This document shows positions 1,602 through 17,726 of a DNA stretch of 22,226 nucleotides, piece by piece. Origin of the DNA: Promethearchaeota archaeon (GTDB taxonomy: Archaea; Asgardarchaeota; Lokiarchaeia; Sigyniarchaeales; SOKP01). Within the stretch, counting starts at the first letter, position 1. Each line of letters begins with the position of its first letter. The notes below the pieces were generated by a model. It did not search any database. It was given only the letters and a program-made list of their open reading frames with translations, and was not told the origin of the DNA. The position numbers and the translations under genes are program-made. The stretch is taken from positions 1-22,226 of the forward strand of contig JAEOTR010000071.1 of the NCBI GenBank assembly GCA_016839705.1. Direction: 5' to 3'.

Positions 1602-2060
1602 ATTCCTGAGCTGGATCAAATATTCGAGGTTCATAAAGACCTATACATAGGAGCCTATTGGCCAAGGTTAAACTTTAAAAGGTTTAAAGAAATAGGTATT
1701 ACAGCTATAGTAAATTTAATGGAGGAAAGTTTTTATAATCCGACCAGTTTAGGATTTTCATATTTACATAAGGGATTTCCTGATGATAGCTATCCCCCTC
1801 ATGATTATCTTGAAGAAATTTTAAATTTCATCGATTATCACATTAAAGATAGCGGAAAAGTATTAGTCCATTGCTCCATGGGGATATCCAGAAGTGGAGG
1901 AATAATTGTTGCCTGGTTACTAAAAGAAAATTTTGCGTGGAGTTGGACAGATGCAATTTCATATGTTAACAAATCCAAGTTTATAGCACCAGCCGTAGAA
2001 ATTCGGGAATCTATACTTGATTATCTTGAAGGGTTTGAGAAAATGAGAAGAAATTATTAA
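1602..2060 (+). CDS. dual-specificity protein phosphatase (DSP/PTP family); true start upstream of the ATG at 1719
   Basis: Catalytic loop VHCSMGISRS (HCx5R) and general-acid loop FPDD. The frame is open back to TAA 1599-1601 and encodes the DSP N-terminal motifs ...EVHKDLYIGAY...EIGITAIVNLM, so the start is probably ATT 1602 or CTG 1611. Confidence 0.85.
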   Translation: MPELDQIFEVHKDLYIGAYWPRLNFKRFKEIGITAIVNLMEESFYNPTSLGFSYLHKGFPDDSYPPHDYLEEILNFIDYHIKDSGKVLVHCSMGISRSGGIIVAWLLKENFAWSWTDAISYVNKSKFIAPAVEIRESILDYLEGFEKMRRNY

Positions 2061-2178: not shown

Positions 2179-2535
2179 TTGTCAGAATTTGAACAAAAAG
2201 TTTTAAAGCTACTAGAAGACATAAACGGAAAACTTGATACATTATTAAAAGGAGGTACTGGAACAACAACGACTGCTACCGTCACTCCGTCAGTACCTGC
2301 TCCTGCTGCTGAACCTGAACCAAGTCGACCAAAACCCTCTGAACTCGTTGAAAAGCAAAAGGAGGAAGAAAGGTTAATAGAAAAACCTCCTGTTGAGGGA
2401 AGGAGAGTTTGCTCTCAGTGTGGAGGGACTAGTTTTAATGCTGTAGAAGATAAATCCCAGGTTCTGCATCAAATGGGAGGCGTAAAGATTTATGCTAAGA
2501 AATATATATGTAAAGGCTGCGGAGCTGAGGCTTAA
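2179..2535 (+). CDS. small protein: N-terminal short coiled coil, Thr/Pro-rich linker, C-terminal C4 Zn ribbon shared with the gelsolin at 6314..7321
   Basis: EQKVLKLLEDINGKLDTLL heptads; TTTTATVTPSVPAPAAEPEP linker; EGRRVCSQCG...YAKKYICKGCG; SD present. Confidence 0.85.
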   Translation: MSEFEQKVLKLLEDINGKLDTLLKGGTGTTTTATVTPSVPAPAAEPEPSRPKPSELVEKQKEEERLIEKPPVEGRRVCSQCGGTSFNAVEDKSQVLHQMGGVKIYAKKYICKGCGAEA

Positions 2536-2759
2536 AGTCTCTCAAACCTTAAATACAACTTAATATCAACTTTAAAGTTTTCTACCTTAAGGCATTTATA
2601 AACCTTTTTTTTAATTTTTTATGGCTATTCTAAATCATGTCTTCCTTAACACAAACTTTTTAGTTAGATTTTTAATTTGATTTTGCTTAAATTTTTTAAT
2701 GGAAAGTTAATTCAGAGTTAATGGTGTTTTAATCAATTCCACAATTACGAGTAAAACAA

Positions 2760-3821
2760 TTGCTTAAATATGTAAAAAATTTTTTTTTAAATAATTTCTC
2801 AAGCATAACGGTTCCCTATTCAGCACAAATTGAATTAACACTTCGATGTAATGGGAAATGTCCCTTTTGTTCAATACATTCCCTACCATCTTCTGTCCTT
2901 GGTGAAGATATGACTACAGAACAAATAAAAGATTTGATCGATCAAATCGCTGCCTTAGGAGTGCTTGCCTTGTCTTTTACTGGTGGTGAACCTACTTTGA
3001 GAAAAGATCTCCCAGAAATCATATATCATACAGGAGTGGTTCATAATTTTATGAATGGAATTGCTTCTAATGGATATTTATTACCAAAATTATTAAAAGA
3101 GGATGGATTAGAGGGTTTAGATTATGTGCTACTTTCACTTGATTATCCTAAAGCGGAATTACATGACAAATGGAGAGGAATTAAAACATTTGACAAAGTT
3201 ATAGAATCAATAAAACTAGCATCTAGAAATGATATAAAACCAATCATAAGTACAGTGGTTATGAAAGATAATATTCGTTATTTAAAAGATATGTGTGAAC
3301 TGGCAGAAAAATTAAATTCATCGATTGAAATATATCCTTGTGAGAATATTATCAGGGATTTTCCTGAAAACAGCTATCAGATTGAAGATATCGATAATCT
3401 AATCCCGGATATCTCTTTATGGGCGAATCTAATTCGATCTTTAAGAAAAAGATATAAAAATATTTTAACAGATTCGATTAGCATTGAAGTAGTTGAAAAG
3501 GGTGGATTTGGAGGATATCCTTTCTATCATCAGAAAATACTTAGATGTCATGTTGCGGAATCTTATATTTTTGTAAGTCACGATGGATTGGTTCATTACC
3601 CTTGCAAAATTCACCCTATTGTGAGTTTCAATGCTTTAAAACACCCCATATCGACAATCTACACATCAACAGGTGTCAGAGAGATTATGAAAAACCATGA
3701 TAATTATGATTTCTGTGATCATTGTCGTTTAGGATGTGCTATAGCATCTTCAATCCCAACTCGTTGGAAAACAGTCTATGCTAAATATATTAAGGGATTT
3801 TTGGATGGTAATTTGAGATAG
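2760..3821 (+). CDS. radical SAM protein with C-terminal SPASM/twitch-like auxiliary cluster domain; substrate unknown
   Basis: CNGKCPFC (CxxxCxxC), FTGGEP, ASNG, HDKWRG; C-terminal C...YPC...CDHCRLGC; TTG start. Confidence 0.9.
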   Translation: MLKYVKNFFLNNFSSITVPYSAQIELTLRCNGKCPFCSIHSLPSSVLGEDMTTEQIKDLIDQIAALGVLALSFTGGEPTLRKDLPEIIYHTGVVHNFMNGIASNGYLLPKLLKEDGLEGLDYVLLSLDYPKAELHDKWRGIKTFDKVIESIKLASRNDIKPIISTVVMKDNIRYLKDMCELAEKLNSSIEIYPCENIIRDFPENSYQIEDIDNLIPDISLWANLIRSLRKRYKNILTDSISIEVVEKGGFGGYPFYHQKILRCHVAESYIFVSHDGLVHYPCKIHPIVSFNALKHPISTIYTSTGVREIMKNHDNYDFCDHCRLGCAIASSIPTRWKTVYAKYIKGFLDGNLR

Positions 3822-3930
3822 TAGAAAATTGACAAGAGAAATCTCAAAACTTCTCACACCGTTTAAGTAATACAATCGATATCAAAAAATTTAATTAAAA
3901 TTATGCTTTTCCTAATATAGTGATGTTTCT

Positions 3931-4575
3931 ATGTCAAGTGTGGCAGTAATTCTCCAAATTATGGGAATAACCATTGGGATGATAATTTTAGGTATGGTCT
4001 TGAATAAAATATTAGGATTATCAAAAGAAAAAATAACAGAATTTAGGGAAAAGGCTTTAAACATTCAAGAACGCATGAGAAATGCTCAATCTGTTGGTGA
4101 TGTTCGAATGATAGCACAAGTACAACAAGAGACCATGCAATTTACCAAGCAGATTATGTTGAAACAATTTATCCCCTTATGCCTAAGGTGTGTTATTTTT
4201 ATTGTAATTTTTGGTATTATCGGATTAGTTTATGCAGGTTATAGTGAAAACCTTTTACCAGTAAATATTCTATTTTTTGGAAGTGGATGGATTGCTGTAT
4301 ATTTTATTTTTTCTATTAGTTTCTCACTAATCATCTTTGGAATTAAACAACTATATAAAAAAATGACAGGAAAGAAAATATCAACTCAAAGGGATATAAG
4401 AAACATTATCGAGATAGTTTCTCCCACCCAAGCTACTGGAATGCCATTTCAGATTCCAGGAGCAGCTTCCCCCAGACCATCAAGAATAAAAACAGTGACT
4501 GCTACTGAAGTACCTTACACAGAAGAAGAATCTAGTGAAAAATCCGATTCATGGAAAGATCGTATTGATAAATGA
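3931..4575 (+). CDS. EMC3/TMCO1 (DUF106; Oxa1 superfamily) membrane insertase-like protein
   Basis: TM1, cytosolic coiled coil (EFREKALNIQERMRNAQ...QVQQETMQ), TM2, then GWIAVYFIFS TM3 typical of DUF106; low-complexity C-tail. Confidence 0.75.
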   Translation: MSSVAVILQIMGITIGMIILGMVLNKILGLSKEKITEFREKALNIQERMRNAQSVGDVRMIAQVQQETMQFTKQIMLKQFIPLCLRCVIFIVIFGIIGLVYAGYSENLLPVNILFFGSGWIAVYFIFSISFSLIIFGIKQLYKKMTGKKISTQRDIRNIIEIVSPTQATGMPFQIPGAASPRPSRIKTVTATEVPYTEEESSEKSDSWKDRIDK

Positions 4576-4667
4576 TACTATAAAGTTATCTTATCTTTAC
4601 TTCTTTTTTGTTCTACTAATAAAAAGGGTGATTAATAATCGAAGAAGAAAACAGCATTAAACGGCAA

Positions 4668-5120
4668 ATGACACTATACTTTACATTTGCTGCTTTAATG
4701 ATAGGCTTGAATTATTTAATCCAAAAATTAAATCAGTTAGTAATTGAACCATTTATCTGCTTAAATTTTGGTGGAAATGATTTTATCCAAATATTCTACT
4801 GCTCAACTAATCCTAATATGTCTGAGTTAATGGGATCCATTGTTGCCGTTGGAATTACGTATATAATTAAATTTTTTCTGGATAAATATATAGTATTCAA
4901 AAAGAAGGGAACTAAGTTGAAAGAAACTTCATTAGAATTTATTAAATATTTCGGATTTGCTATATTAACCACCATTGAAAATATAGGAATTCAGTTCCTA
5001 TTAACAAATTATCTCAATACCCCACTAGAAATCAGTGTTATAATCGCTTTATCTATAGGATATCTAACAAAATTCTTCATAGATAGAAAATTAGTTTTTG
5101 TAATTGAGAATAGAGAATAA
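4668..5120 (+). CDS. GtrA-family small membrane protein (putative lipid-linked sugar flippase)
   Basis: Four hydrophobic segments; duplicated KFFLDKYIVF / KFFIDRKLVF and EFIKYFGF motifs typical of GtrA. The start may lie upstream (ATA 4635 / ATC 4638 after GGTGA). Confidence 0.8.
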   Translation: MTLYFTFAALMIGLNYLIQKLNQLVIEPFICLNFGGNDFIQIFYCSTNPNMSELMGSIVAVGITYIIKFFLDKYIVFKKKGTKLKETSLEFIKYFGFAILTTIENIGIQFLLTNYLNTPLEISVIIALSIGYLTKFFIDRKLVFVIENRE

Positions 5121-5155
5121 TAAAATTTAATAGATCGGATAGTGATTTAAAACAT

Positions 5156-6238
5156 ATGTCAGATGAAGGAGAAAGACACAAAGAAGAAGAAGATAAATCT
5201 ATTGTCGATGCATTATCAACTCTCGGATGGGTTGAAGAGAAGGATGAGGAAGAAGAAGTCCCAGATTCAGAGGAAAATCTCTTGGAACAACTTAATTTCT
5301 TTAAAAACGAAAACAAGAAGTTGATTCACACGATGAATGAAAAACTAGAAATTATTGGTATCCTTGAAACCAAAGTACAAGAATTATCAACAAAAACCGA
5401 GAAGGAGTCCTCTCAAAGTGAAGCAACTCAAAAACTCTATGAAATTATTGAAAATAAAAATGATGAAATTGAACGTTTGAATTCTGTTCTTGAGGAGGAA
5501 ACAGATAAAACTCAAAAAGTAATAGAAGATCAGCTTCAAAAAATTAAAGAATTAACTACTCAAATAGATGAAACCCAACCTGATCAGAGGGATTTGATAA
5601 ACACCAAGGACGATGAAATTAAAGAATTAAAAGAGCAACTTCAGTATCTCGAAAGTGATACAATTCAAAAATCTAAGTTTCAAAAACTTGAAGTCCTTTT
5701 GGAAAAAAAAGATGAAATTATAACAGAAAAAGAAAAAACTATTTTTAACTTAGAAAACTCGCTGAAAACCGTTAAACAAAAGATTCAAGAAATACAGCAA
5801 CAATCAGAAACATTTAGCTTAGTTAAAAAAGATCTAGAGAAAAAATCTGAAAGGAATAGAGAGTTAGCAGTTAAGATTGAAGAGCTCAATCAAAAAAACA
5901 TTACAAAATTAGAATTAATAGATCGTCTTGAACAAAAGTTAGAAGAAGCTCATAAAAAATCAGGGAATATCACGGGAAAATTTGAATTAGAATTAGGAAA
6001 CCTGCGAAATTTGCTGGATGGGAAAGCTGATGAAATAAAAACTTTAAGAGATAAATTGAGTAGTGTTGATACTGAATTACAAGAATATAAAAAAATTGAG
6101 GATAAAATTTTAGGCGATATCCAGATTATCAAAGATGAAAAACTTAAACTTGAATCTGACACTGAAGATAAGGATAAAGAAATCATAGAACTAAAAAAAA
6201 GAATTAAGTTAATGCGTAGAGACTTACAAAAATCATAG
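5156..6238 (+). CDS. long coiled-coil protein of unknown function
   Basis: About 310 aa of E/K/Q/L heptads after an acidic N-terminus containing IVDALSTLGW; no ATPase or TM motif seen. Confidence 0.8.
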   Translation: MSDEGERHKEEEDKSIVDALSTLGWVEEKDEEEEVPDSEENLLEQLNFFKNENKKLIHTMNEKLEIIGILETKVQELSTKTEKESSQSEATQKLYEIIENKNDEIERLNSVLEEETDKTQKVIEDQLQKIKELTTQIDETQPDQRDLINTKDDEIKELKEQLQYLESDTIQKSKFQKLEVLLEKKDEIITEKEKTIFNLENSLKTVKQKIQEIQQQSETFSLVKKDLEKKSERNRELAVKIEELNQKNITKLELIDRLEQKLEEAHKKSGNITGKFELELGNLRNLLDGKADEIKTLRDKLSSVDTELQEYKKIEDKILGDIQIIKDEKLKLESDTEDKDKEIIELKKRIKLMRRDLQKS

Positions 6239-6313
6239 AGAAAAAAAGTCTATTTAAATACGTTTAAAATTTTTATTAAAAAAAGATAAAAAATAAATTA
6301 GAATAATAGAAAC

Positions 6314-7321
6314 TTATTTTTCACGCCAGAGCACTCCACAGTTCCCACAAGTGTATTTTTTTCCGTAAACTCGTGGGTAGTCTAAAATAACATTTGACTT
6401 GTCAACACTCTCATGGATCATATGAGGGTCGTCAGTGCCACACTCGGGGCATTTTCGCCTTCCTTCGGGGGCTTCAATAGTTACTATTGAACTGTCTGTC
6501 TTACCAGGGATTCCTGGGGCTGCACCGGAAGCTTTTACTTCTGAAATATCGGCTTGGACTTCTGCTGGAGTTACTTCTTTAACTTCAGATTTAAACTCGG
6601 GTTGGATTGCTGCGGCTACTCGATCATCCTCATCTTCTCCTTCTAATACCGATTCTGCTTTTAATTGGACCGCATCAGATTCTTTATACTCTTCTCCCCG
6701 ATCTAACGCAGCATGAAATTCAGCGTCATCACCTTCTTCAAAGATAGTTTCTTGCTGTAATCCGGCCCTATCTGCATCTATAGATCGCCCCCATTGACCC
6801 GCTTTTACTTTTTCAGTTGTAGTACATGCATTTCCCTGCCAAATGTATACTTTATTTCCTAAATCCGCAACAAAACAATCTTCTGATTCCAATGAAGCTT
6901 TAGAAAATGGGACTTGAATCATTTTCATTGCATTAATATCATCAAATTCTTCAGATGATACACGGTACAATATATTTCGCCATTCTGTGAATCCTGCCCA
7001 ATCTCCAGTCGTTACATCTTTCAGTAAAGTCTTTGCGTAATTTTTTTCAACGATTTTCATGGCACCCATTGGAGCAACAAGTTTAAGAAATTCTTTAGTC
7101 TCAAAACCTTGGTCTACGGTAATAATTTTTGCGGCACCTCCACGTTGTTGGTCTAGAGTTCTTGCTTGGGCGGCTCCAGCGGTTTTTTCATCTACAGAGC
7201 ATTTATTGCCAATCCACACATATATTGTTCTTTCATCATCAACGAGATAAACGTCTCCACTGCTAAAAATCGGTTTAGTTATTTCTTTTAATTCGCCTTT
7301 CTCAATTAGAAATAGTTTCAT
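6314..7321 (-). CDS. two-domain gelsolin (Asgard 2DGel-type) with acidic linker and C-terminal Zn ribbon
   Basis: Domain 1 SGDVYLVD...IYVWIG...DEK...DQGFETKEF; domain 2 SEDCFVADLGNKVYIWQG...EKVKA...EEGDDAEF; C-terminal CPECG...CGNCG. Confidence 0.92.
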   Translation of the reverse strand: MKLFLIEKGELKEITKPIFSSGDVYLVDDERTIYVWIGNKCSVDEKTAGAAQARTLDQQRGGAAKIITVDQGFETKEFLKLVAPMGAMKIVEKNYAKTLLKDVTTGDWAGFTEWRNILYRVSSEEFDDINAMKMIQVPFSKASLESEDCFVADLGNKVYIWQGNACTTTEKVKAGQWGRSIDADRAGLQQETIFEEGDDAEFHAALDRGEEYKESDAVQLKAESVLEGEDEDDRVAAAIQPEFKSEVKEVTPAEVQADISEVKASGAAPGIPGKTDSSIVTIEAPEGRRKCPECGTDDPHMIHESVDKSNVILDYPRVYGKKYTCGNCGVLWREK

Positions 7322-10070: not shown

Positions 10071-10153
10071 TCTAAATAATATTTATATATTTTAGCTTTC
10101 ATATTTTCTAATTACCAAGCTATCGACCTTTTTATTTGCCATCTCTGATTATT

Positions 10154-10420
10154 ATGAAAAAGAATTTTATGAATACTGAAACTCGCGCATTTTTAATTCG
10201 GAAACTCTTAACAGTTTGTCCAGTATGTCAGAAACGAATTTATGGGAAAGATATTGACATATTGAAAATTGATAAAAAAAAAATTAGTCATTGGCCATTA
10301 AGATACATTCACTGTCATACTAACAATAATGTACCATTCCATGCCTTAACTATTTATTTAGATAATAATTTTGCCGTGCGTGGAAATGAAGTTTCTAATT
10401 TTATAAAAATAGAAAACTAA
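10154..10420 (+). CDS. small putative Zn-binding protein (CxxC...HCH...H...YLDNNFAVRG)
   Basis: CPVC, YIHCH, FHALTIYLDNNFAVRGNE. Start uncertain (TTG 10136, ATG 10154 or ATG 10169). Confidence 0.75.
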   Translation: MKKNFMNTETRAFLIRKLLTVCPVCQKRIYGKDIDILKIDKKKISHWPLRYIHCHTNNNVPFHALTIYLDNNFAVRGNEVSNFIKIEN

Positions 10421-13906: not shown

Positions 13907-15982
13907 CTAGAATTTTTCCAACTCCTGATCTTCTTGTTCCTGATATAAATCTGAATGAGGTTCAAGAAAATGATTTTGACACATTGGACAAGAATTGTAT
14001 TTTGAAAGCCAAAACGCTACACAGAGATAATGATAAGTACTACCACAAAAAGGGCAAGTTATAACTTTATCTCTAGCAAAATTTAAGTGTTTATGGCAAA
14101 CTGTACATTGAACATCTGATTCTGTAACCCCTTTCCGAACTTTAACTCTATTTGATAGTATTGTTTCTAACTTCGATAATTCTATTTGGTAAAGGCCTAA
14201 AGAATTATTTAAATGATTAATTTTAGAATTAATTTCATTTATCCTTTCTCTCAACTCATCTTCGGTTAGTTTTTCTGCCAGAAATGATGATAAAGCAAAG
14301 TTTAAAGGTAATCCTTCAAAATTTTCTGTTTGTTCCGTTATCTCTGTAATCGTTGCAAAAAGAATCCCCTCCTTATCAATTAATTCCTTAAAACTTTTAA
14401 ATAACTTGTTTATTAAAAGAGAAATAAGAAAAGTTAGTTGCTGCCTTTTTCGATTAAAATTATCCTCCCACAATTTAATGATTTGATAAATATCAATATC
14501 ATTTGACTTGATTGAATCTAATCGTTTATACACATCATCTTTTATGATTTGAATTTTTGAATCATGTTCAGTTAAGATCTCTTTCACTTTTTTTAATTGA
14601 GGAAATTCTTCTCGAATAATAAGGGAGGTTTCATCCTCATAACTTCTGATTAAGTCGTTTATCTGTGAGATCTTTTCAGTAACAAATTTCCGTATACTAA
14701 CTCTTATCTCTTCATCTTTTACTGTTTTTATAAACGTTAAATATTCATTTTTTCTTCTAAAAATTTCAGAAGATAAATTTGAAAAGATCTTTTTTAATGA
14801 GTCTGTGATATTTTCATAGGGTACTAGATAATTTTCGAAAGTTAGAATCCAGTTTTCAATAGCTTCAATTTTCCCAGAGAATACCTCAATTTTTTGATAA
14901 TAGAAGTTTGCGATTTCCTCAAATTTTTCAGATTCAATTACATCCTGTATTTTTTCTTGGAAATTCTTTTCTAATCCTTTAATATATAAATCAACAATTT
15001 TCGGTAAGAAATTGCTAATTTTTTGTTGTTTGAGAGAATTAATGTCTAAACCTTTTAAATCGTCTTTTAAGTCAAAATCTCCTAATTCGCTAAAGATATT
15101 TTCCAATTTATCAAATATTACATCTATTAGTAAAGGATTTACGAATTTTTGCAATTTCTGAATTACTTCTTTTCTCTCAAGAATATTGATGAATTCATCT
15201 CCTTGGTATAGCTCAAATCCGTTATTTACATATAATAGATAAATTAAATCAGAATAGTAATTAATTTGTTTTTCATCTTTCGATAAATAATATTGATATA
15301 TTTCGTCAAAATGAAATGTTCTAATATTTTCCTTCATTGCCTTTTTTATCTTTTTAGTAAAAACTTCATTTAAGCTAATAATAAATGCTTCAAGTTCCTT
15401 ATATTCATCCCAATTATCCAATTCATGGGGTAAATTATTTAGTTTGAAATTAAGGTTCATAATTTTATTAACTTCAATCCAGAGAAATACTTCATCATTG
15501 TAGAGATTAACACTTTCTTTCAAGGAGTTTATCACATTTGAAGCAATATCATTACTCTGATGTAGCAAATTTTTCGTTATAGATAATAAGCTATCTAAAT
15601 GAGGATAACCATTCTTTGTAATTCTCTTTATATTGGAACAATTTGAATTTAAATTTTGTAGACTTTCTATTACACGATTTAGCTCTTTAAGAATTCGTGA
15701 TTTCAAATGAAAATGAAGATCATTTTTAACAATAGACGTTGATCCTATTATGTACAAACCAAAAAATGATTTTATTTTAATTAAATAATCAGAATAGAGC
15801 TCAAGAACATTGTTTGAGACATCTAATTTGATTATTATATAATCATATATTTCTGAAGCATCTGCTTTATCGGATTTTAGTTTGTTTAAGGTTTGCTTTA
15901 TCTCGGTTATTTCTTCTTTATTGAAACTTGATATCTTCCCATCATCATTAAAATTATTGTTGAATAGATTCATTGAGCTCAA
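13907..15982 (-). CDS. helical/coiled-coil protein with C-terminal C4HC3 RING finger; putative E3 ligase
   Basis: CTVC-x13-CPFC-x4-HYLC-(VAFW)-CPMC with the conserved Trp after the sixth ligand; preceding coiled coil ELRERINEINSKINHLNNSL. Start TTG 15982 or ATG 15973. Confidence 0.85.
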   Translation of the reverse strand: MSSMNLFNNNFNDDGKISSFNKEEITEIKQTLNKLKSDKADASEIYDYIIIKLDVSNNVLELYSDYLIKIKSFFGLYIIGSTSIVKNDLHFHLKSRILKELNRVIESLQNLNSNCSNIKRITKNGYPHLDSLLSITKNLLHQSNDIASNVINSLKESVNLYNDEVFLWIEVNKIMNLNFKLNNLPHELDNWDEYKELEAFIISLNEVFTKKIKKAMKENIRTFHFDEIYQYYLSKDEKQINYYSDLIYLLYVNNGFELYQGDEFINILERKEVIQKLQKFVNPLLIDVIFDKLENIFSELGDFDLKDDLKGLDINSLKQQKISNFLPKIVDLYIKGLEKNFQEKIQDVIESEKFEEIANFYYQKIEVFSGKIEAIENWILTFENYLVPYENITDSLKKIFSNLSSEIFRRKNEYLTFIKTVKDEEIRVSIRKFVTEKISQINDLIRSYEDETSLIIREEFPQLKKVKEILTEHDSKIQIIKDDVYKRLDSIKSNDIDIYQIIKLWEDNFNRKRQQLTFLISLLINKLFKSFKELIDKEGILFATITEITEQTENFEGLPLNFALSSFLAEKLTEDELRERINEINSKINHLNNSLGLYQIELSKLETILSNRVKVRKGVTESDVQCTVCHKHLNFARDKVITCPFCGSTYHYLCVAFWLSKYNSCPMCQNHFLEPHSDLYQEQEDQELEKF

Positions 15983-16086
15983 ACCCTATATTAGTCACAT
16001 GGTACATTATAAAAGAAAGAAGTCATACAATAAATTATTAATGACATAAAGGTAATCTCTAAATTTTTAGAAAAAGAAATAAAATT

Positions 16087-16704
16087 TTATTCTCCTACTT
16101 CCGTTATTTCAATGTATTTTTCCTTAGCCCCAGTCTTAGTGATTGTTAAAATATCTATACCGTTACCAGACATGACATCTCGAGCAATTGAATTCTGGAT
16201 TGCTTTTTCTACTAATTTTTCCCCTGCAGCTACTGTCATATTAGGTTTGTATTCTGCTTCTAAAATTCCATAAGAAAGTAGCATTCCTGTCCCTACAGCA
16301 CCATAATCATCAGGCATTAAACTTCCGATTTGATCTAAGGTGTATAATTCGGGTCCTTCCTTATCCATACCTGCGATTACTATGATTGACAATAAAGGTG
16401 CCATTTTTCTCGAATACAAATAATTACTTACCATTTTACCCATACTTCGTGTGGATATCGGTTCTCCAGCATCTAAAAGGTATAGATTTGCCTGCGCTCG
16501 TAAGATTTTTACTAAAATTTGGGAGTCTCCGATAAGTCCATAAGTAGCTAACCCTATATTCTCAGTAATTTTAAAGACCTTCCTTGTAGTCTTACTAATC
16601 ACGGTGTAACCCCACGTAGCTCTCCGATCACTCCCTAAAACCACACCATCCTTACACTTAATAGCAACCGATGCTGCACCTGGAACCATTATTTGTTGTG
16701 ACAT
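16087..16704 (-). CDS. psmB: 20S proteasome beta subunit, probably non-catalytic type
   Basis: KDGVVLGSDRR, KVFKI, GLIGD, LYTLD.IGS, GTG, RDVMSGNGID. The position of catalytic Thr1 reads PG/AASV instead of G/TTTV. Confidence 0.93.
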   Translation of the reverse strand: MSQQIMVPGAASVAIKCKDGVVLGSDRRATWGYTVISKTTRKVFKITENIGLATYGLIGDSQILVKILRAQANLYLLDAGEPISTRSMGKMVSNYLYSRKMAPLLSIIVIAGMDKEGPELYTLDQIGSLMPDDYGAVGTGMLLSYGILEAEYKPNMTVAAGEKLVEKAIQNSIARDVMSGNGIDILTITKTGAKEKYIEITEVGE

Positions 16705-16938
16705 GTTAATATCCTTTTACAATAAATTAAATTGAATTTTTAAGTTATTTTTGATAGTATAAATAAACAGAACTAATTAAAATTTTTCTTTTAAATTATA
16801 ACATTTAACATCTAACCCCATTTAATTAAAAATTATTATTCTATTTCAGAATAAATCATTTTTCAATTTTCGATTTATCGAATGATCCCAAGATTGAAAT
16901 TAATTTTTACTTCTTATCCCATTTATTATATAATGTTT

Positions 16939-17305
16939 ATGATCACCCAATCAATCATAATTTATTTCATAAGGATGATTCAATTTAACTTAAATTTTTT
17001 TAATTCCCCCTTCAATTATAGTAAAACTAAGATTAAACACGAATTACTCAATATTACCATTTGAATTGTTGTGTGTCTAACAAAATTACTTCATCTTTTT
17101 CGAATGATTAGTCATTGTATGATCACATAATTTATGATAACTTTTTCAATTATGATTGTCAGTTTCAATTAAAAATTTTTCAATTCCCCTTTAAATTATA
17201 ACAAAACCAATAGTAATGATTAGTTACTCAATATTGATATTCGAATAATTTTGATTATGCAAAAATTAGTTCATATTTTTTGAATGATCAACCATTGGAT
17301 GATCA
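16939..17305. repeat. non-coding 180-bp tandem repeat (two full units plus the start of a third)
   Basis: ATGATCA at 16939/17119/17299; AATTCCCC 17002/17182; TTACTCAATATT 17044/17224; GAATGAT 17102/17282; 126/180 identical with no gaps (hand count). Confidence 0.85.
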
Positions 17306-17388
17306 TAGGTTTTGACTCTTCAATTAAAACCAAAATTTTTTGTCGTGATTTTTTTTTCATTTAACTCTTCTAATTCTGCTGATTTAGT

Positions 17389-17403
17389 CAAAACATTTAA
17401 ATA
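17389..17403 (+). promoter_or_regulatory. candidate BRE + TATA box of the histone gene
   Basis: CAAAACA-TTTAAATA about 105 nt upstream of the ATG; in AT-rich DNA this is not unique. Confidence 0.4.
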
Positions 17404-17495
17404 CCTCTTCAGACATTATACTATCTAAGACACTTTAAAAATAAACTACAATAAAATTAAAAACTTAAATTTTAAAATTTTATACCACAAATTTG

Positions 17496-17500
17496 GAGGA
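17496..17500 (+). promoter_or_regulatory. Shine-Dalgarno GGAGG of the histone gene
   Basis: GGAGG ends 7 nt before ATG 17508. Confidence 0.7.
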
Positions 17501-17507
17501 ATAAAAA

Positions 17508-17726
17508 ATGGCAAAAAAGAAACATTCTTTCGCATGGAGTCCAATCCGTCGATTAATGAAGCAACAAGGCGCCTCTATCGTAGCTCGCAATGCAGTTGAC
17601 TTATTAATCGATCATTTAGAGAAAACCGCTTCTGGTTTGACTGAACAAGCAAGAACCTTTACCATGCATGCGAACAGAAAGAAAATCACAAAGAACGACT
17701 TGCTCCTAGCAATTAAGTACGTCTAA
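17508..17726 (+). CDS. archaeal histone (HMf-type histone fold) with short basic N-terminus
   Basis: FAWSPIRRLMKQQGA.IV...A...HANRKKITKND (R-x6-D L2 salt bridge), 72 aa, strong SD. Confidence 0.95.
   Translation: MAKKKHSFAWSPIRRLMKQQGASIVARNAVDLLIDHLEKTASGLTEQARTFTMHANRKKITKNDLLLAIKYV

Follow-up and report, generated by a model that had tools for sequence, protein, structure and literature searches.

Two proteins with a shared tail

The DNA analysed here, called the window in what follows, is a stretch of 22,226 nucleotides (nt) from a Promethearchaeota archaeon of the Lokiarchaeia (assembly GCA_016839705.1, contig JAEOTR010000071.1). It encodes a protein of 118 amino acids (aa), hereafter Z118, and a two-domain gelsolin (2DGel), both of which end in the same small domain, here called the ribbon, whose four invariant Cys residues probably bind zinc. 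Both open reading frames (ORFs) and both tails were recovered where the earlier note on this DNA had placed them. Their features are as follows (models were obtained with AlphaFold2, AF2, and model confidence is given as pLDDT).

2179..2535, plus strand: Z118, 118-aa ribbon carrier (helix, linker, KPS motif and helix, C-terminal Zn ribbon); ORF and AF2 model
2185..2250, plus strand: Z118 N-terminal amphipathic helix, residues 3-24, conserved, with a heptad-like Leu/Ile face; pLDDT 87-90
2251..2331, plus strand: Z118 Thr/Pro/Ala-rich linker, residues 25-51, variable, model confidence low
2332..2379, plus strand: Z118 KPS motif (invariant) and charged helix, residues 52-67; alignment and AF2 (helix 53-67)
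2395..2532, plus strand: Z118 Zn ribbon, C78/C81/C111/C114, long beta-hairpin 86-111, outside the DYP subtype
6314..7321, minus strand: two-domain gelsolin, 335 aa, full-length orthologue of Loki2DGel; PDB 7WHG chain G, E 2e-184
6467..6661, minus strand: gelsolin linker, residues 221-285, acidic then Ala/Pro-rich
6317..6466, minus strand: gelsolin C-terminal Zn ribbon, i.e. the published "Zn domain", C291/C294/C325/C328, DYP subtype

Z118 starts with a TTG codon preceded by GAGGAG (2165-2170), and its window copy is intron-free, as is that of the gelsolin. Its N-terminal helix may be an oligomerisation element, and pLDDT drops below 50 across most of residues 27-48 in the linker. EGRR opens the ribbon at 2395, followed by Cys codons at 2410, 2419, 2509 and 2518; on the minus strand, the gelsolin ribbon likewise begins with EGRR (6466) and has its Cys codons at 6451, 6442, 6349 and 6340. 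The gelsolin displayed two stretches matching Pfam Gelsolin (89 bits), and its residues 100-103 read LKDV, in which the Ca-binding Asp of the LVDV motif is retained. It therefore has the whole set of Loki2DGel features, namely two domains, an LVDV-type central motif, a linker and a terminal Zn domain.

The pattern CxxC...D-K...Y-x-K-K-x-x-CxxC is common to both ribbons, which share 21 identities over 52 positions (pairwise BLASTP, E 1e-7). Their local score of 82 is to be compared with 30.5±5.6 (maximum 48) for about 217 other proteins of the same genome with CxxC-x12-45-CxxC spacing, and a chance match of cysteines was rejected on this ground as source of the shared tail. The claim that the similarity goes beyond the CxxC pairs is thus borne out and, as also proposed, a low-complexity linker precedes the ribbon in both proteins.

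The core of this finding, i.e. the shared tail and the docking idea, has been known since 2022. The tail of Loki2DGel was named Zn domain, was recognised on unrelated Loki proteins and was proposed to serve docking (Akil 2022, PMC9433394). Ca2+-dependent capping, severing or sequestration of actin was shown there for Loki2DGel and MKD1-2DGel, full Loki2DGel being weak on rabbit actin. The isolated Zn domain, in the same paper, neither associated with rabbit F-actin nor bundled it and gave no density in the 2:1 actin co-crystal (PDB 7WHG), and the Loki tail fused to green fluorescent protein (GFP) was spread uniformly in human U2OS cells. The tail of 7WHG chain G is also the only strong family-level PDB match of our ribbon profile (E 2e-21). 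A full-text literature search did not find the term "Zn domain" for this ribbon in other papers.

Carriers and subtypes of the ribbon

In a ribbon profile search of this genome, the eight intact carriers scored at least 83 bits and C87, a split gene that makes up the ninth, 29 bits; no further carrier appeared, all remaining proteins lying at or below 16 bits. Besides the window pair, the carriers are three long coiled coils, one short coiled coil, a 262-aa protein, a lone 64-aa ribbon and C87. Z118 ranked only fifth among the matches of the gelsolin ribbon in this genome. Its core identity to the latter was 36%, against 61% for both the 64-aa lone ribbon and the 262-aa protein, two unlinked paralogues. 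In a tree of 32 ribbons (58 columns only, the deeper forks being unsettled), a branch with a DYP hairpin tip united the gelsolin type and the C87 family with support of 94/98 and left out Z118, whose tip reads QMGG and has no tip Tyr. The gelsolin ribbon itself displays the DYP tip. Z118 adds a new carrier to those of the known Zn domain, one whose ribbon belongs to a sister subtype.

At the level of 50% identity, 511 clusters matched the ribbon profile (1.84 billion representatives), of which the best 150 were surveyed for architecture. Among these, the ribbon was nearly always C-terminal and mostly located behind coiled coils, with few tandem or internal copies; both window ribbons occupy the extreme C-terminus and display the family signature (two CxxC pairs, long hairpin, D-K and Y-x-K-K). 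The fusions beyond coiled coils (P0001, P0002, P0013, P0032, P0065, P0079, P0097, P0116, P0120; L175, L176) involved small-GTPase-like, TPR-like, winged-helix-like and multi-pass membrane proteins as well as long Pro/Ala-rich proteins with tandem ribbons, partner labels other than coiled coil being readings of the sequences by eye. Neither Pfam nor NCBIfam holds a model for the ribbon, and in an Atlas look-up the lone ribbon was not assigned to any named family and the N-terminal domain found in the C46 carrier had no match. The earlier note had considered that the ribbon might be generic and spread over many unrelated proteins: the unrelated proteins are indeed many, but the family is specific.

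A KPS-type motif, K/R-P-S-(E/D/A)-hydrophobic with a charged helix behind it, was observed in the window at 2332-2349. Of 149 carriers, 13 had such a motif ahead of the ribbon, against 0.8 expected from the genome background, composition and kinship being uncontrolled in this comparison. The motif might serve as a second site for docking or for phosphorylation.

Distribution among Asgard archaea

A survey of 120 genomes drawn from the phylum extended the published, Loki-only range of the Zn domain, which is a correction of range and not of membership. Loki-order genomes had 5-11 ribbon matches each, and in 13 other Asgard families the ribbon occurred in 43 of 45 genomes, as one copy and rarely two. 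The gene encodes a ribbon on its own (about 50-65 aa) at 19 of 20 non-Loki loci examined and has a Pro-rich tail at the remaining one. Hosts of lone ribbons were Odinarchaeota, Jordarchaeia/Freyarchaeum, Baldrarchaeia, Heimdallarchaeum aukensis and endolithica, Wukong and Atabeya (the last two recognised by their actins), and profile-profile comparison tied these proteins to the family with a probability of 99.6%. All named matches in a search of 5.8 billion sequences were Asgard, and the ribbon was not found in several further families of the phylum survey. The lone form was presumably the ancestral one, and the fusions would have arisen by expansion within Loki; given the lone protein in Heimdallarchaeaceae, Odin and others, the ribbon is probably older than its fusion to gelsolin.

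In Jordarchaeia/Freya-type genomes, the lone ribbon gene was followed by a DedA/VTT-domain membrane gene at eight loci (L089, L090, L092, L094, L097, L099, L106, L107), an arrangement not seen in the other classes.

Predicted fold

The AF2 model of the ribbon (pLDDT 82) is a zinc ribbon with a long beta-hairpin. Tip columns of the hairpin were 80-100% hydrophobic and its shoulders carried near-invariant Asp, Lys, Tyr, Lys and Lys, the mean net charge of the ribbon being +4.5. The fold matched generic zinc ribbons, i.e. TFIIS, Rpb9/A12, Rpp21, NrdR and eL44 (Foldseek E 0.26-0.4; VIA Z 3.0-4.3). Folds of FYVE, C1 or PX type were absent among the matches listed, where the best Z was only 4.3. Ribbon carriers scored at most 20.1 bits with the TFS_arch model (cut-off 64.75) and the window proteins did not match it. 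A TFS paralogue was rejected in view of the hydrophobic tip, the missing N-terminal ribbon and scores far under this cut-off.

Ribbon carriers in a Lokiactin co-immunoprecipitation

The Lokiactin co-immunoprecipitation (co-IP) of Lokiarchaeum ossiferum, carried out on formaldehyde-fixed cells, was re-read for ribbon carriers (Radler et al., bioRxiv 2025.11.30.690169, supplementary table 2; PMC13716822). L. ossiferum B35 has eight of them. Six were matched by accession; for the 374-aa and 404-aa carriers, only mass and position served to find the corresponding rows of the table. The GTPase-like carrier is missing from the table, and the others ranked as follows.

2DGel1: log2 3.97, rank 6
374-aa carrier: log2 3.85, rank 9
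Lone 57-aa ribbon: log2 2.53, rank 18
404-aa coiled-coil carrier: log2 2.10, rank 31
330-aa KPS-bearing coiled-coil carrier: log2 1.91, rank 47
Lone 62-aa ribbon: log2 1.74, rank 54
534-aa coiled-coil carrier: log2 0.57, not significant, rank estimated at 200-240

Five of the six non-gelsolin carriers detected were thus within the top 54 of about 569 valid proteins, a total derived from the adjusted P values (rank test, p ~1e-4). Two enriched carriers are lone ribbons and one is acidic (isoelectric point 4.8). The earlier note would have given up its idea if the carriers lacked any cytoskeletal enrichment; in these data most of those detected were enriched with Lokiactin.

Further proteins enriched in this co-IP were a ubiquitin-like one and two coiled coils that lack a ribbon and are possibly cytoskeletal (04085, 02839).

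Gene order around the pair

The genes upstream of and between Z118 and the gelsolin are listed below.

1602..2060, plus strand: dual-specificity phosphatase (DSP), the gene immediately before Z118 in most family relatives
2760..3821, plus strand: radical SAM/SPASM gene, conserved with the block
3931..4575, plus strand: EMC3/TMCO1-like membrane protein gene, conserved with the block; Pfam 29.6 bits, above cut-off
4668..5120, plus strand: GtrA-like gene, conserved with the block
5156..6238, plus strand: 360-aa coiled-coil gene without ribbon, conserved with the block

Z118 and the gelsolin had been described as neighbours, but a distance of 3.8 kb and four other genes separate them, and they are encoded on opposite strands. 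A pair-specific operon was rejected on these grounds, the whole block being equally conserved. Orthologues of Z118 were found in all 24 same-genus genomes searched. Both genes occurred on the same stretch at 16 of the 20 same-genus loci examined, always within the whole block, metabolic genes included; they were unlinked in G023 and G006, and in G017 no gelsolin followed the coiled coil. Seven genomes of other genera in the family retained the block, in many cases with several kb of additional DNA next to Z118. A different arrangement was observed in the family that includes L. ossiferum and MK-D1, where 2DGel adjoins a lone DYP ribbon and Z118-like genes are located elsewhere. The linkage of Z118 and gelsolin is ordinary family-level gene order, present in other Lokiarchaeia inside the same family but not outside it. 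The two-gene module of the earlier note is not supported: there are nine carriers, the two ribbons are of different subtypes and their linkage is whole-block synteny within one family.

Gelsolin-domain genes were encountered near ribbon genes in three separate arrangements. Elsewhere in this genome (C52), a gelsolin-domain gene (L004:120-989, minus strand) stands head-to-head with a short coiled-coil ribbon carrier (L004:1181-1681, plus strand) at a distance of 191 bp. This pair was conserved in 4/4 genomes of the genus and in 0/5 of genus g14.

Mini-introns in ribbon genes of relatives

Eight of the 24 same-genus Z118 orthologues displayed inserts of 29-32 nt in their ribbon-coding part, at two sites, and the split ninth ribbon gene of this genome contains a comparable one.

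Z118 orthologues, insert after the YAK codons: L023, L029, L030, L031
Z118 orthologues, insert after the third Cys codon: L020, L025, L027, L028
C87, ninth ribbon gene, missed by ORF calling: L007:7078-7285, with a 29-nt insert at L007:7179-7207

All eight inserts in Z118 orthologues were in bulge-helix-bulge (BHB) register, with 3-4 of 4 pairs in the central helix and an inner stem of 6-11 bp, and their excision restores IYAKKY. In the C87 paralogue family 30/30 inserts were in BHB register. The 29-nt insert of C87 type was kept in the 29 best-scoring relatives, a sample biased by a query that included the insert. The inner stem of this insert was 91% paired, with compensatory changes, a value that no shuffle equalled (kin not being independent). 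Five intron-free relatives of C87 encode the predicted joined peptide, and the intron-free orthologue of L. ossiferum was detected as a protein by proteomics. An automated scan of neighbouring genes, about 93 kb in alignment, found no such insert, a negative that holds for well-aligned genes only; the scan overlooked the inserts at the C-terminal site and gave false gaps in the coiled coil. The inserts are predicted to be BHB (EndA/RtcB-type) mRNA introns and go back to only a few gains. Standard annotation would undercount the ribbon family because of them.

Two further inserts were observed: a second, stop-containing one of 30 nt in the same 165-nt ribbon gene at L075 (G016:C52; central helix 3/4, stem 9 bp), and another of 30 nt, also stop-containing, that separates the first from the second Cys codon in a coiled-coil carrier at L172:994-1203 (G124:C18; central helix only 2/4). 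A TAA in G036 and a TAG in G033 were rejected as introns, the former lying upstream of an intact lone ribbon and the latter being a single codon change.

Proposed role of the ribbon

The reading we prefer, tentatively and at slightly less than an even chance, is that the ribbon is a multivalent docking tag for a putative non-actin partner near the actin network. It would be a portable Asgard tag of about 45 residues that the Loki order multiplied onto the C-termini of coiled coils, 2DGel and GTPase-like, TPR-like and membrane proteins. The hairpin would bind one common, Asgard-specific partner in or near the Lokiactin network, e.g. a cortical scaffold, and not actin itself: the link to actin is more likely indirect since the Zn domain showed neither co-crystal density nor F-actin association. 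Carriers that form coiled-coil or helix oligomers, such as Z118, may offer several ribbons and so gain avidity, and lone ribbons might fill or modulate the same site. On its leash of about 65 residues, the gelsolin ribbon would keep gelsolin close to the filaments cut by its Ca2+-activated domains. Z118 would then be one client of this network and not a dedicated gelsolin regulator. The shared docking or localisation tag of the earlier note agrees with the anatomy and receives moderate support from the co-IP, but it was not new, and the result on rabbit F-actin was negative.

Several observations weigh against such a docking tag. The co-IP signal of the carriers is suggestive and not clean: besides the poorly ranked 534-aa carrier, a histone (log2 3.96) and ribosomal large-subunit proteins (uL1 2.69, eL18 2.2, uL24 1.96, uL5 1.77, eL19 1.73) were enriched in the same range. 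The hunt for a partner among the top matches of the co-IP yielded mostly background (LysRS, a probable FolE, histone, a Nop5-like protein, ribosomal proteins and the two ribbon-less coiled coils; L. ossiferum loci L192, L194, L198, L201, L214, L215). A basic ribbon could reach the same ranks through stickiness or nucleic-acid binding, and the co-IP does not separate a cytoskeletal address from carry-over driven by nucleic acids or charge. The ribbon was not found in 17 Thorarchaeota genomes, although Thorarchaeia have actin and 2DGel. The context of lone ribbons at the 20 non-Loki loci was unconserved across families, with no actin or gelsolin gene within about 6 kb. Likewise, the adjacency of 2DGel and a lone ribbon in L. 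ossiferum may reflect local duplication, since both are sisters in the tree.

Among the alternatives, a peripheral membrane anchor is conceivable but unlikely. The tip would be inserted in the bilayer, with the Lys/Arg shoulders contacting anionic lipids of archaea, e.g. archaetidylinositol phosphates, and coiled-coil oligomers would provide avidity, as for FYVE fingers on EEA1. This would suit the hydrophobic tip, the flanking near-invariant Lys residues and the positive net charge; coiled coils with a terminal finger and tandem copies are also what low-affinity surface binding would call for, and an anchor at the membrane would account both for indirect co-IP with cortical actin and for the absent F-actin binding. 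Yet, the ribbon is also present on proteins with transmembrane helices of their own (P0079, P0097), the GFP-tagged Loki tail was uniform in U2OS cells (whose lipids differ, however), and the fold matches listed include nothing resembling FYVE, C1 or PX, though the best of these had a Z of only 4.3. We consider it rather improbable that the ribbon binds RNA, DNA or the ribosome, in which case the co-IP would reflect ribosome or chromatin carry-over and the ribbon of gelsolin would tie actin regulation to ribosomes or the nucleoid. The best folds (TFIIS, Rpb9/A12, Rpp21, NrdR, eL44), the weak TFS_arch match (20 bits), the basic surface and the histone and ribosomal proteins in the co-IP all point that way; these fold matches are, however, no better than for any zinc ribbon, the acidic TFS tip is replaced by hydrophobic residues, fusion partners are coiled coils, gelsolin and membrane proteins instead of nucleic-acid enzymes, and lone ribbons lie outside ribosomal and RNA polymerase operons.

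Direct binding to Lokiactin, at a surface unlike rabbit actin, is more improbable still. Lone ribbons would then be small actin regulators and coiled-coil carriers cross-linkers, which would agree with the enrichment of two lone ribbons, and the negative results may reflect the heterologous actin, Loki2DGel being weak on rabbit actin (Akil 2022). In the same paper, nonetheless, the Zn domain neither associated with rabbit F-actin nor bundled it and left no density in the co-crystal, and the Thorarchaeota genomes in which the ribbon was not found have an actin about 72% identical. Least of all do we expect a dedicated module in which Z118 is an adaptor or a competitor for the anchor of gelsolin, as the earlier note had suggested. 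The common contig in most same-genus loci and in seven genomes of other genera, together with the shared EGRR start of the ribbons, would favour it; against it stand the differing subtypes, with closer relatives of the gelsolin ribbon among unlinked paralogues, the opposite strands, the intervening genes and several kb often inserted beside Z118, the equal conservation of the whole block and the cases without linkage, including the family of L. ossiferum. The 64-aa lone DYP ribbon is a better candidate than Z118 for a competitor at the gelsolin site, should there be one.

A broader version of the docking tag, possible but doubtful, starts from a lone mini-protein that served as a docking module in the ancestor of the Loki, Odin, Jord/Freya, Baldr and Heimdall lineages. 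Lokiarchaeia would have turned it into a shared address label by which a gelsolin, several coiled-coil rods and both GTPase-like and membrane proteins are brought to a single anchoring site in the Lokiactin cortex, and in some species an intact ribbon would require tRNA-type splicing of the mRNA. If so, this would be a prokaryotic modular interaction network of SH3/PDZ-like kind, organising the cytoskeleton of protrusions. If one ribbon addresses 5-11 proteins per cell to the same place, candidate scaffolds are already at hand in cultured L. ossiferum (UYP47813, UYP47583, UYP44320, UYP47237 and others). With its wider Asgard range and its co-IP ranks, the ribbon would be a good bait for the anchor of the Asgard actin cytoskeleton.

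Other genes of the window

The DSP frame is open from an ATT at 1602 (TAA-ATT), 39 codons before the first ATG, and this extension supplies the missing N-terminal DSP elements; ATT is likely the start of the gene. For the EMC3/TMCO1-like protein, we assume that a role as an insertase of the Oxa1 superfamily is at least as likely as that of a Ca2+ channel. CLAC-type channels were cited as possible Ca2+ sources for gelsolins (Akil 2022, PMC9433394). A 94-aa Zn-binding ORF (10136-10420) matched in two separate pieces in G010 (L040:10335-10609). A coiled-coil RING protein is encoded downstream of the proteasome beta subunit gene in 13907-17726, where a divergent histone gene is also present.

Comparison with known systems

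The closest systems are Loki2DGel, MKD1-2DGel and the discrete Zn-domain protein TFG08877.1, the window gelsolin being a full-length orthologue of 7WHG chain G. Akil 2022 reports no consistent detection beyond Loki, whereas a lone single-copy protein was found here in 13 other Asgard families. Two subtypes were separated in this study, the 118-aa protein having no tip Tyr. The paper contains no description of Z118 and its family, of the KPS motif, of carriers with tandem or internal copies, or of co-IP enrichment.

Splicing within an archaeal coding sequence is documented for cbf5 (Yokobori 2009, PMC2738675). The inserts in ribbon genes resemble this crenarchaeal BHB intron: they are 29-32 nt long, break the frame or contain a stop, and have a 4-bp central helix, two 3-nt bulges and an inner stem, and their removal restores the protein. 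They differ from it in their Asgard host and in their several independent sites in ribbon-coding DNA.

The ribbons of TFIIS, archaeal TFS and Rpb9 likewise display two CxxC knuckles and a long protruding beta-hairpin (Foldseek TM 0.56-0.60; VIA Z 2.8-3.6). Compared with TFIIS and TFS, the tip of the Asgard ribbon is hydrophobic, with Pro or Gly, instead of carrying an acidic Asp-Glu pair, and the domain has no N-terminal ribbon and is fused to coiled coils and gelsolin. Eukaryotes also have coiled coils with a terminal zinc finger, such as EEA1 with its FYVE domain, NEMO and optineurin with UBZ, and CLIP-170 with its knuckles. No relation to these in sequence or fold was detected, which makes them analogues and not homologues; the likeness is one of architecture only, an oligomerising rod that presents a small terminal Zn module for avid binding.

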